This document shows, one piece after another, positions 1-3,000 of a stretch of DNA of 37,804 nucleotides (position 1 is the first letter of the stretch; the number at the start of each line of letters is the position of its first letter). Source of the DNA: Gemmatimonadota bacterium (lineage in GTDB: Bacteria > Gemmatimonadota > Gemmatimonadetes > Longimicrobiales > RSA9); NCBI GenBank assembly GCA_040905425.1, contig JBBDRO010000052.1:1-37804 (forward strand), written 5' to 3'. Position numbers: made by a program.

Positions 1-3000
1 AGGGGACATTTCTATCCGTCGAAGGTAGGGGACATTTCTATCCGTACTTGACACGCGCCGAGGCCGGCGCTTGACCGGGCGCGGCACCTCCGCTACACTC
101 CGCGCCATGACGAACCGCACCGCGCTGTACCGGCACGCCCATCATCATCACGGCCCCACGGGTCGCGAGAAGGGCGAGTAGCGCGCGGCAACGGCGCGTC
201 ATCGGCTTTCGACCGCGGCCCGTCCACGAGACGGGCCGCGGTTTTTTTTGTGAGGGACATTCACCAGCGGGGCGCCCCGGCGCCCATACGGGAACGAGCA
301 CATGATCCGCATTGCACTACCGAACAAGGGGCGCCTCTCCGAGAGCGCCCGGGAACTGCTGGACCGGGCTGGCCTGGAAATGGACGTGCGCGGGGAGCGG
401 GCGCTCCAGGCCACCCTGGCCGGCGGCGCCTTCCTGGCGCTCTTCGTGCGCGCCGAGGACATTCCGGAATTCGTGGCGGACGGCGCCGCCGACGTGGGCA
501 TCACCGGGCGGGACCTGGTGGCCGAATCGGAGCGGCCCGTGGAGGAGCTCCTGGATCTGGGCTTCGGCCGCTGCCGGGTAGCCGTGGCCGCGCGCGACGA
601 CGGCCCGGCCACCCTGGAGGACATCCCCTCGGGCGCCCGTGTGGCCACAGTCTTCCCCAACATCACCACGCGCTACTTTGCCGAGTTGGGCCGCGATGTC
701 ACGCTGGTCTCCATCTCCGGCGCCGCCGAGATCGCCCCGCACCTGGGTGTGGCGGACATCATCGTGGACCTGGTGTCCACCGGCTCCACGCTCAAGATGA
801 ACGGTCTGCACGAGCTGGCCACCGTCATGGAGTCCAGCGCGGTGGTGATCGCGCGCAGGGAGCTCCTGGAAGTGCCCGAAACGGAGCGGCCGGTGCGGGA
901 GCTGGTGGCCGGGCTCGAGTCCGTCCTGCGGGCGCGCGGCAAGCGCTACCTCATGGCCAACGTGCCTCGCGCCGTCCTGGATGAGGTGAAGCGCATCCTG
1001 CCGGGCATCAACGGCCCCACCATCGTGGACGTGATGGACGGCGGGGAGCACGTGGCGGCGCACGCCGTGGTGGATACGGCCGACGTCTACCGGGTCATCG
1101 CGGAGCTGAAAACGCTCGGTGCCGAAGGCATCCTGGTGACCAAGATCGAGAGGCTGATGCCGTGAACATTGCCGTGGAGGGCCGCGTGGGGGCGCTGGAC
1201 GAGGGCGCCGAGACCCGGCTCTTCGACCGCGGCCGCGCGGCGGATCCGGCCGTGGCCGAGGCCGTGGCCGCGCTGGTGGCCGACGTGCGCAGCCGCGGGG
1301 ACGCCGCGCTCCGTGAGCAGGCGGCGCGCTTCGACGGCGTGGCGCTGGAGGCGCTCGAGGTGCCCCGCGAGGCCTGGGACAGGGCGCTGGCCGAGCTGGA
1401 CCCCGCCGTGCGGAACGCCCTGCAGCAGGCCGCCGACGCCATCGCCGGCTTCCACACCGCCCAGCTGCCCGCGCCGCTGGAGGTGGAGCTCCGCCCCGGC
1501 GTCCGGCTCGGCCGCCGCGCCGAGCCCCTGCGCGCCGTGGGCGTGTACGCGCCGGGCGGGCGCGCCTCCTACCCGAGCAGCGTGCTCATGGGCGTGGTGC
1601 CGGCGCGCGTGGCGGGGGTGGCGGAGGTGGTGGTGTGCTCACCGCCGGGGCCGGATGGCCGCCCGCCCGCCGCGGTCATGGCGGCGTGCGCCATCGGCGG
1701 CGCGGACCGGCTCTTCGCGCTGGGCGGTGCGGGGGCCGTGGCGGCGCTGGCGCTGGGCACGGCCAGCGTGCCGCGGGTGGACAAGATCGTGGGCCCGGGC
1801 AACGCCTACGTCACCGAGGCCAAGCGCCAGCTCACCGGCACCGTGGCCATCGACTGTCCGGCGGGCCCCTCCGAGGTGCTCATCGTGGCCGATGACGGTG
1901 CGGACGCCGAGCTGCTGGCCGCGGAGCTCATCGCGCAGGCGGAGCACGACCCGGACGCGGCGGCGGTGCTCCTCAGCACCTCGGCCGACGTGCTGGCCGC
2001 CACGCGTGAGGCGCTCACCCGCCTCCTGGACGGACAGCCCCGCGCGGCCATCGTCACGGAGGCGCTGGCGGCCCGGGGCGGCCTGCTGCTGGCCGACTCC
2101 CTGGACGAGGCCTACGCCTTCGCCACGCGCTACGCCCCCGAACACCTCCTCCTCATGGTGGCCGATCCGCGCGCGGGTCTGGCGCGCGTGCGCTCGGCGG
2201 GCACCGTCTTCCTGGGCGCGGGCAGCTCCGTGGCCTTCGGGGACTACCTCACGGGCGCCAACCACGTGCTCCCCACCGCCGGCCTGGCCCGGGCGTACGC
2301 GGGGCTCTCGGCCGCGGACTTCCTGCGCTGGACCACCTACCAGGAGGTAAGCGACGACGCCGCCGCCTCGCTCGCCGCGCCCACAGCCACGCTCGCGGAC
2401 GCCGAGGGCCTGCCGGGGCACGCGCTGGCCGCGCGGCTGCGCGCGCGCGGCGCCGCGCCGAACGAAGACGCGCGCGGCGGAGCCGGCGCGGGGACGTCGC
2501 TTGAGACGGTGCCGTTCCGGGGCGCGTACGCTGGGATCGAGCTCTACGAGCCGGGGCGCGTGCCCACCGCCGTGGACCTGAGTGACAACACCAACCTGTG
2601 GGGCCTGCACCCGCTCGTGGCGGAGCTGTTCGCGGCGCTGCCGGCCGACGCGGTGACGCGCTACCCCACCGTGTGGGCGCGGCGGCTGAAGGAGGTGGCG
2701 GCCGCGGCCTTCGAGGTGGCGCCGGAGAACGTGGCCACCGGCTGCGGCTCCGATGACCTCATCGACTCGGCCGTGCGCGCCTTCTGCGAGCCGGGGCAGG
2801 CGGTGGCCTTCCCGGAGCCCACCTTCGGCGTGGTCTCCACCTTCGCGCGCATGAACGCCGCGCGGCCGGTGGCGGTGCCGCTGGGCGCGGACTTCGCGCT
2901 GGACCCCGCGGCGCTGCTGGCCACGGGCGCCGCGCTCACCTATATCTGCCGCCCGAACAACCCCACCGGCACACGCTTCGAGCGGGCGGCGGTGGAGCGG

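Follow-up and report, generated by a model that had tools for sequence, protein, structure and literature searches.

A probable histidine leader-peptide attenuator upstream of hisG in Gemmatimonadota

Results

Organization of the leader region and his operon

The stretch of DNA analyzed (hereafter, the window) comprises the 37,804 nt of contig JBBDRO010000052.1 (assembly GCA_040905425.1), from a Gemmatimonadota bacterium of the family RSA9. Near its beginning lies a his operon preceded by a short leader region, with the following features:

71..76, + strand: -35-like box, TTGACC
94..99, + strand: -10-like box, TACACT, after a 17-nt spacer, with 7 nt between it and the ATG of the leader frame
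107..181, + strand: leader frame of 24 codons plus stop, with its ATG at 107; peptide MTNRTALYRHAHHHHGPTGREKGE
134..151, + strand: putative regulatory His codons (CAC, GCC, then CAT CAT CAT CAC)
136..176, + strand: P1, the anti-antiterminator hairpin (segments 1:2), -21.0 kcal/mol
158..167, + strand: segment 2, ACGGGUCGCG, which finds its partner either within P1 or in segment 3
211..243, + strand: predicted intrinsic terminator hairpin (segments 3:4) of 14 pairs, 11 of them G-C, with a 5-nt loop, -30.1 kcal/mol
214..223, + strand: segment 3, CGCGGCCCGU, part of the terminator 5' arm and partner of segment 2 in the antiterminator
242..249, + strand: eight consecutive T, which give the terminator its U tract (read in the sequence and found by terminator scan)
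302..7760, + strand: his operon, the proposed target of regulation (Pfam; gene starts past hisG are approximate)
302..1165, + strand: hisG (Pfam HisG and HisG_C)
1162..3582, + strand: single open frame with HisD and HisC domains (Pfam)

Beyond the HisD/HisC frame, the operon continues with hisH, hisA, hisB, hisF, a gene of the inositol-monophosphatase family and hisIE. The 24-codon leader frame was left uncalled in the annotation. On rereading the sequence, we recovered the frame that the genome-wide survey's note had placed at 107-181, with its ATG, a TAG stop codon (179-181) and five His in six codons (134-136 and 140-151). The note had also described a GC-rich hairpin followed by eight U ahead of hisG; both are present, but the stem has 14 pairs and starts at 211, and is not the 12-bp stem from 213 that had been reported. 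The hisG ATG lies 52 nt from the T run and 58 nt from the stem. Profile searches with the 24-aa peptide matched no Pfam and no NCBIfam family at E up to 10, a search of low power at this length, and other frames in the region (41-301, 96-260 and 202-669 on the minus strand; 250-981 on the plus strand) were likewise without Pfam matches.

TTGACC and TACACT form the only promoter-like site in positions 1-1500 of the window, the mean for shuffled sequence being 0.0. Since the -10 box ends 7 nt ahead of the ATG, a Shine-Dalgarno site has no room, and, judging solely from the promoter spacing, the transcript probably has its 5' end at the first base of the leader frame or 1 nt away at most. Because the contig begins 70 nt before the -35 box, a further promoter could lie upstream. 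When the whole genome was scanned with a strict pattern of promoter, start codon (5-10 nt), frame of 10-45 codons and terminator, this locus alone was returned. The thrS attenuator of the same genome has a longer 5' leader, which places it outside that pattern.

Distribution of the leader

Thirty hisG loci were available from the family, 26 of which were usable (at least 100 nt of upstream sequence), while the contigs of the other four break 11-68 nt before hisG. All 26 usable loci, spanning 16 genera, had an ATG frame 23-34 codons long in which a stretch of 7 codons included 4-6 His, and at each of them a hairpin with a T-rich tail followed 22-39 nt past the leader stop, the T tract of locus L014 being weak. 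Three of these loci (L014, L023, and L029) belong to unpublished genomes (G046, G018, and G016, respectively); without them the count is 23 of 23. The recurrence ahead of hisG in relatives, as the survey's note had it, is borne out by these loci, and the repeated occurrence of frame and terminator together upstream of hisG in the family excludes chance as its source.

The element is spread through the class, beyond family RSA9. A covariance model, R1, matched 43 of the 151 genomes of the phylum, with matches in our families f5 (23/31), f4 (14/71), f2 (3/16), f9 (1/1), and f10 (1/13). Counted as loci, 27 of 29 R1 matches had hisG directly downstream, and a His-rich frame was found in all 27. 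Taking family loci and R1 loci together, 53 of the 55 matches examined adjoin hisG on its upstream side. With a narrow search pattern, at least 119 stretches were found across 185,579 species genomes; among the 80 loci of the matches listed, 41 scored at least 29 bits with R1, and all of these carried Gemmatimonadota or Longimicrobiales labels. The listed matches with other labels, among them Streptomyces and Acidimicrobiia, stayed under 24 bits with R1 and were taken as chance.

We compared 53 leaders, i.e., the 26 family loci and 27 from other families. In every one, a frame opens with a start codon, contains a His cluster and closes with a stop ahead of the terminator, and its best 8-codon window holds 4-7 His. 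TTGnnn occurs at the equivalent relative place in 46 of the 53, and in the 46 leaders where the promoter pattern was found, the -10 box lies 5-11 nt from the start codon (mode, 6-7 nt). At the peptide level the motif H-x-HH-x-HHH-GP-x-G is kept among relatives, while the N- and C-terminal parts vary in both sequence and length. Conservation of this motif would also be compatible with a functional His-rich peptide, e.g., a metal binder, made from a short transcript of its own, with hisG served by a separate promoter. We regard this as extremely unlikely, considering that the conserved G-P-x-G is accounted for by the RNA hairpin GGCCC...GGGUC, that the flanking parts of the peptide are unconserved and change in length, that no protein family in Pfam or NCBIfam was matched, and that 53 of 55 examined matches sit before hisG. 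Furthermore, the stem-to-hisG gap is 12-58 nt at 21 of the 26 family loci (76-140 nt at the other five), and since this gap is so short, a hisG-specific promoter has no room at most loci.

The terminator was parsed between the frame and the structural gene in all 53 leaders, and nearly all of them retain a G+C-rich stem with 5-8 T immediately behind it. At three loci (L013, L028, and L030), hisG begins only 12-13 nt past the stem, so that its start region could be masked; the hairpin at 211-243 might accordingly be thought to act mainly on hisG translation or RNA stability, or through Rho-dependent polarity after ribosome release. This is very improbable in our estimation: the stem with its T run, found in nearly all leaders, is the signature of intrinsic termination, and in the window 58 nt separate stem and hisG, such that the stem cannot occlude the hisG start.

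Mutually exclusive helices

The 5' strand of P1 (136-156) consists of most of the His codons plus CGGCCC, and its 3' strand extends over 160-176. Pairing of segment 2 with segment 3 (158-167/214-223) yields an antiterminator that excludes both P1 and the terminator. The survey's note had left this alternative pairing unmodelled; once modelled, it proved to be conserved with compensatory changes. RNAalifold, unprompted, chose the antiterminator helix as the consensus for alignment A1. Of its cells, 92.1% were paired in A1 and 88.3% in alignment A2, versus 33-48% with the partners slid. On A2, 6 of the 10 pairs showed compensatory change and 13 cells were changed on both sides, a level of two-sided change that 0-2 of 500 shuffles reached, although kinship among the compared sequences means that such counts and shuffle tests overstate independence. 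For P1 on A1, 86.4% of cells were paired (37-57% when slid) with 5 compensatory pairs, the percentage being biased upward since the extended P1 structure was taken from the fold of one sequence. RNAalifold applied to the 5' half of A1 gave the tip of P1 only, and the P1 tip and terminator jointly were 87.4% paired. Individual leaders also showed concerted changes in segments 2, 3, and 4: L004 has A, U, and A where its neighbours have G, C, and G, while L020 has U, A, and U. In L036 the terminator stem differs (CCGGCCCCCC/GGGGGGCCGG), and the segment following the His codons has changed in step to GGGGGGAGCCGG.

The leader region folded better than its own shuffles (z = -3.9; 0 of 200 as good). 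The duplex of segment 2 with the terminator 5' arm had an energy of -20.9 kcal/mol in the window, compared with a shuffled mean of -15.6 kcal/mol (z = -1.9; 3.7% of shuffles as good), and the duplex was better than 95% of shuffles in only 18 of the 53 leaders. Taken alone, the energetics are weak support for a switch. We also computed the minimum free energy fold of each transcript as it would stand before segment 4 is synthesized, with a ribosome occupying the penultimate His codon, allowing the post-His partner segment to start within 30 nt after the last His codon (6-13 nt was observed). At least 5 nt of the terminator 5' arm entered the post-His pairing in 48 of the 53 leaders. Equilibrium folds with ribosome masks gave no separation between a stalled ribosome, one at the stop codon, and none at all; the terminator 5' arm in the window was paired with probabilities of 0.47-0.70, 0.68, and 0.58, respectively. 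The switch would therefore have to depend on kinetics, like that of known attenuators. Stalling on the last His codon would leave 3-5 nt of segment 2 under the ribosome.

Discussion

A frame with cognate codons, a terminator, an antiterminator exclusive of it and an anti-antiterminator are all present and conserved, which supports the attenuator reading in the survey's note. Very probably, a ribosome-mediated (leader-peptide) attenuator sets expression of the his operon according to the supply of charged tRNA-His. Transcription from TTGACC-N17-TACACT would start at, or within 1 nt of, A107, so that the leader AUG would stand at the very 5' end. When His-tRNA is plentiful, the ribosome would reach the UAG at 179-181, and segment 2 would be covered or folded into P1; segment 3 would then be free, the terminator (211-243 plus U8) would form, and the polymerase would stop before hisG. 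With His-tRNA scarce, the ribosome would stall on the His codons, which make up most of the 5' strand of P1 (the hairpin at 136-176, His codons at 134-151), and would hold that strand inside it. Segment 2 would thus be left free to pair with 214-223 once this is made, and without a terminator the polymerase would continue through hisG and the operon genes behind it. In the absence of translation, P1 would be expected to form and transcription to terminate.

The helices are kept at the RNA level, as they would also be in a sensor that works independently of translation (T-box-like, riboswitch-like, or a protein-bound attenuator) and in which the His-rich frame is incidental. Since pairing with G fits the CAT/CAC variation as well as coding does, this variation alone is no proof of translation, and it is compatible with such a sensor. 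Several observations nevertheless make the sensor very unlikely. A cmscan of window positions 1-1500 against Rfam with E up to 10 returned ten weak matches, none of them to His_leader (RF00514) or any other leader family, in agreement with the survey's note, and neither the T-box covariance model nor a riboswitch family was matched. Start, His cluster and stop are retained in 53 of 53 leaders despite N-terminal variation in length and sequence, the distance from promoter to start codon is fixed, and the regulatory codons fit the end product of the operon. Moreover, leaders of like layout ahead of ThrRS and aromatic hydroxylase genes have Thr and Tyr/Trp codons instead.

In the phylum, such like-layout leaders precede ThrRS (with Thr codons), a Phe-hydroxylase-type gene (Tyr/Trp codons), and a LeuA/CimA-type synthase (Ile codons). 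These Thr, Tyr/Trp, and Ile leaders share the four-segment layout and are leaderless or near-leaderless by position. Conceivably, a single attenuator design could have spread as duplicates whose sensor codons were later replaced.

Translation of the leader frame from a transcript with no 5' leader at all (5'-terminal AUG or GUG) throughout the class is possible, if somewhat doubtful. If true, ribosome loading would be tied to the first nucleotides leaving RNA polymerase. The element adds a case outside Actinobacteria of a regulatory leader peptide that seemingly starts at the mRNA 5' end. A leaderless start bears on transcription-translation coupling where few Shine-Dalgarno sites are used; for Gemmatimonadetes, PMC10783764 tabulates the value 22, understood here as the percentage of genes having a Shine-Dalgarno site.

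The survey's note had been written without a literature search; the one run here (subscription journals lay outside it) turned up no relevant paper on Gemmatimonadota, nor, going by titles and abstracts, one on histidine leader-peptide attenuation in myxobacteria. Within the reach of that search and of Rfam, the RNA family of the Gemmatimonadota is undescribed, and the mechanism itself is textbook; the gain is one of distribution and annotation, not of principle. It consists in a concrete, testable regulatory mechanism for the his operon of a widespread, little-studied phylum of soil and water, together with a covariance model (R1) for an RNA family overlooked by annotation pipelines.

Among the closest known systems is enterobacterial hisL (RF00514): there, too, a short frame contains a cluster of His codons, alternative hairpins can form, and an intrinsic terminator immediately precedes hisG. 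In hisL, seven His codons stand in a row, whereas the leaders described here have 4-7 His codons interrupted by Arg, Ala or Val codons. The his leader of Salmonella and E. coli has six segments, as opposed to four here (1:2, 2:3, 3:4), and the start codon of the Gemmatimonadota element lies 5-11 nt past the -10 box, which leaves no Shine-Dalgarno site. The element shares the four-segment topology of E. coli trpL, in which segment 1 contains the regulatory codons, segments 2 and 3 pair as the antiterminator, and segments 3 and 4 pair as the terminator, followed by its U tract. It differs from trpL in amino acid and sequence, in its putatively leaderless start, and in the leader stop codon, which lies after segment 2 here and before it in trpL. 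His T-boxes of Firmicutes and Actinobacteria also control his genes by letting either a terminator or an antiterminator form; T-boxes, however, read uncharged tRNA directly and have no translated frame.

The logic proposed here is the same as that of enterobacterial hisL attenuation as set out in PMC9413887. That paper also lists candidate His attenuators without RF00514 matches in the Bacillus cereus group, Peptostreptococcaceae, and Erysipelotrichales, and PMC2965389 describes a His leader before hisS/hisZ paralogues in bacilli, again without an RF00514 match. As far as these descriptions allow, the Firmicutes His attenuators are alike in being lineage-specific, recognized by comparative genomics and outside RF00514, and they differ in belonging to another phylum. 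A precedent for the inferred start exists in Actinobacteria, where the ilvB leader of C. glutamicum is produced despite the lack of a ribosome binding site (Morbach 2000, as cited in PMC4046766) and mycobacteria have leaderless poly-Cys short ORFs (bioRxiv 10.1101/834739). These, too, are regulatory short ORFs at the 5' end that control downstream amino-acid genes; phylum and amino acid differ, and in Gemmatimonadota the leaderless start is suggested by promoter spacing.

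Leader frame and promoter- and terminator-like sites ahead of hisG

The histidine operon of the window opens with hisG and continues to ~7760 in the order histidinol-dehydrogenase/aminotransferase frame, hisH, hisA, hisB, hisF, an inositol-monophosphatase-family gene and hisIE. The frame after hisG, one open frame of 806 codons (1162-3582), combines a histidinol-dehydrogenase domain (residues 25-427) with an aminotransferase domain of class I/II (493-792), and looks like a HisD-HisC fusion. The inositol-monophosphatase-family gene (5875-7152), lying between hisF and hisIE inside the operon, is a candidate histidinol-phosphate phosphatase of the HisN type. 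Reading the sequence ahead of hisG and scanning it for consensus sites gave the following features:

71-76 and 94-99: promoter-like site, TTGACC and TACACT with a 17-nt spacer (consensus scan)
107-181, + strand: leader frame ATG...TAG, product MTNRTALYRHAHHHHGPTGREKGE (read from sequence)
134-136 and 140-151, + strand: His codons of the leader frame (read from sequence)
211-243: terminator-like stem of 14 pairs (11 G-C) with a 5-nt loop (consensus scan)
242-249: T8 tract of the terminator (consensus scan)
302: start of hisG (Pfam HisG and HisG_C)

The consensus scan found a single promoter-like site in 1-1500 (shuffle mean 0.0) and a single terminator-like site in the same interval. Region 100-301 folds at -103.5 kcal/mol (z = -3.9 against 200 dinucleotide shuffles), and no Pfam family matched the opposite-strand frames overlapping the leader. 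On these grounds the leader frame that the genome-wide survey's note had described before hisG stands. The hairpin it reported is also present, but as 14 pairs from 211 rather than 12 bp from 213, and the T run lies 52 rather than 53 nt before hisG.

Recurrence within the family

When 61 genomes of family RSA9 were searched for hisG, 46 gave matches, and the best 30 loci were taken; 26 of these, from 16 genera, had at least 100 nt upstream of hisG and were usable. In each of the 26, an ATG opens a frame of 23-34 codons in which 4-6 His fall within 7 codons, most commonly as H-R-H-H-A-H-H-H-G-P-x-G, and a hairpin with a T-rich tail begins 22-39 nt past the stop codon; the T tract is weak in L014. 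Three loci (L014, L023, and L029) belong to unpublished genomes (G046, G018, and G016) and are included in the family counts, in both alignments and in the covariance model described below; without them, the counts are 23/23. Since the stem lies 12-58 nt from hisG in 21 of the 26 loci (76-140 nt in the other five), most loci leave no room for a separate hisG promoter.

The window begins with a direct repeat, AGGGGACATTTCTATCCGT, at 1-19 and 27-45 (period 26). With up to 3 mismatches, this unit occurs in 16 copies in the source genome, mostly as tandem pairs, and 12 of these copies are no more than 300 nt from a contig end, on 6 contigs. Copy number and placement mark it as a dispersed, assembly-breaking repeat, which explains why the window begins 70 nt ahead of the his promoter. 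A related sequence, GAGGGACATTCACC, lies at 252-265. In L002, L010, L019, and L025, the contig breaks 11-68 nt before hisG, in the spacer that should separate the terminator from the gene, and a spacer repeat like that at the window start may have broken these assemblies.

Three mutually exclusive helices

Minimum-energy folds of all 26 leaders share CGGCCC, a 3-4-nt loop and GGGUCG just past the last His codon, and this hairpin accounts for the conservation of "GPxG" in the peptide through a constraint on the RNA. Within the window, it extends to a helix, P1 (136-176, -21.0 kcal/mol), whose 5' strand takes in most of the run of His codons. The sequence forming the 3' half of P1, ACGGGUCGCG (158-167), can alternatively pair with CGCGGCCCGU (214-223) in the terminator 5' arm, so that three mutually exclusive helices result, 1:2 (P1, the anti-antiterminator), 2:3 (the antiterminator), and 3:4 (the terminator), as in the trp leader. 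RNAalifold returned the 2:3 helix, unprompted, as the consensus structure of the 26 family sequences (alignment A1). A second alignment, A2, adds 27 leaders of other families with hisG downstream.

Pairing in the leader alignments (percentage of cells paired; in parentheses, after sliding by 1-3 columns)
2:3 antiterminator, A1: 92.1% (33-44%); 3 compensatory pairs
1:2 tip and 3:4 terminator, A1: 87.4% (30-45%); 6 compensatory pairs
Extended P1 (structure taken from one member's fold), A1: 86.4% (37-57%); 5 compensatory pairs
2:3 antiterminator, A2 (53 full-length rows): 88.3% (33-48%)

In A2, 6 of 10 pairs of the 2:3 helix show compensatory change (13 cells), a count matched by 0-2 of 500 shuffles; since the alignment was fitted with the 1:2 and 3:4 helices only, this count is free of fit bias. 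The leaders are related to one another, and shuffle tests for this reason overstate independence. Segments 2, 3, and 4 also change in concert: L004 has A, U, and A where its neighbours have G, C, and G, and L020 has U, A, and U. In L036, the terminator stem is different (CCGGCCCCCC / GGGGGGCCGG) and the post-His segment is altered in step (GGGGGGAGCCGG).

Energetically, the advantage is modest. The duplex of the terminator 5' arm with the 30 nt past the His run reaches -20.9 kcal/mol in the window against -15.6 for shuffled sequences (z = -1.9), and its counterparts beat 95% of their own shuffles in only 18 of 53 leaders. In 48 of 53 leaders, when the ribosome was placed on the second-last His codon and segment 4 was not yet made, the minimum-energy structure paired at least 5 nt of the terminator 5' arm with a segment starting 6-13 nt past the last His codon. 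With the ribosome represented as a mask, equilibrium partition functions failed to tell the stalled, terminating and ribosome-free states apart; the decision would have to be kinetic, as in known attenuators.

Distribution and leaders of similar layout

A covariance model of the leader (148 positions, 18 pairs), run with Infernal's stricter filters, matched 43 of 151 sampled genomes of the phylum, with one match in the source genome. By family, matches were found in 23/31 (f5), 14/71 (f4), 3/16 (f2), 1/1 (f9), and 1/13 (f10) genomes, and in none from six other families sampled. hisG lies directly downstream in 27 of the 29 matches fetched as loci, and each of these 27 has a frame rich in His, 18-31 codons long. 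A scan with a narrow pattern, covering one genome per species of bacteria and archaea, gave among the matches listed 41 full-length records of at least 29 bits, all labelled Gemmatimonadota. In L036, L051, and L057, from other families, the His leader precedes a HisG only ~32% identical to that of the window, so the leader travels with two deeply diverged hisG types; the terminator sequence of L036 and L057 is different and has co-varied.

Other leaders were also seen. Matches L182 (G135) and L184 (G110) share the layout but have frames rich in Tyr and Trp (...AYRYYWYSTSHTGR... and ...SYSYWYSTS...), and a terminator follows each. The next gene in L182 matches Pfam Biopterin_H (aromatic amino acid hydroxylases), and the beginning of the next ORF in L184 resembles it in sequence; the pair looks like a putative Tyr-sensing attenuator for Phe-to-Tyr conversion. 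In L183 (G175), a gene for threonyl-tRNA synthetase, with TGS, SAD, class II core, and anticodon-binding domains, is preceded by a leader rich in Thr, MTPFTGIMTTTGATTRTTG..., and a terminator. In L050 (G177), the gene behind the leader, MTNIRAVRPHGIIARL..., and its terminator encodes a LeuA/CimA-type synthase, and a -10-like box lies near the leader ATG. These leaders are 38-50% identical to his leaders, a level that does not establish homology. On contig C33 of the source genome (~27702-27891), outside the window, lies a second leader-peptide attenuator, in which the frame MRPRSSITTATTSRRRRGA (4 Thr in 5 codons, start 27762) and a hairpin with a T-rich tail (27853-27891) stand just before a thrS homologue (ATG near 27919). 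Unlike that of the his leader, its frame is preceded by a 5' leader and by GGGAGG, a Shine-Dalgarno-like site.

A probable leaderless start

The -10-like box of the window ends 7 nt before the leader ATG. The pattern TTGnnn-N16-19-TAnnnT is present in 46 of 53 leaders. The distance from the -10 box to the start codon in these 46 is 6 or 7 nt (24 leaders), 8-11 nt (19), or 5 nt (three); two members start with GTG. With such spacing, transcription would begin at the start codon or no more than a few bases from it, leaving no room for a Shine-Dalgarno site. Spacing and conservation form the basis on which we consider the his leader probably leaderless. Actinobacteria offer precedents in the C. 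glutamicum ilvB leader, translated in the absence of a ribosome binding site (Morbach 2000, cited in PMC4046766), and in leaderless mycobacterial poly-Cys short ORFs (10.1101/834739). A table of PMC10783764 gives a value of 22 for Gemmatimonadetes, which we take to mean that Shine-Dalgarno sites precede only a small proportion of genes.

Comparison with known attenuators

No Rfam family, His_leader, T-box and other leaders included, matched up to E = 10, in agreement with the survey's statement on the Rfam leader families, and the peptide matched no Pfam or NCBIfam profile. According to PMC2965389, leader peptides were by 2010 known from Proteobacteria and Actinobacteria alone, and that paper itself reports a His leader in bacilli. 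PMC1262725 reports that no his leader was found in Actinobacteria, and PMC9413887 places His attenuators in Proteobacteria and new lineage-specific ones in a few Firmicutes groups. Our literature search, which covered sources other than subscription journals, yielded no paper describing an element of this kind in Gemmatimonadota. The analysis shows the parts of the element and their evolutionary coupling; transcription would start at or near the leader start codon, the frame would be translated and the element would respond to histidine. Altogether, the element is real and conserved, and very likely acts as a ribosome-mediated histidine attenuator. It represents a new family within a familiar kind, its one unusual trait being a probable leaderless start, and it matches the enterobacterial hisL attenuator in regulatory logic and trpL in its four-segment topology.
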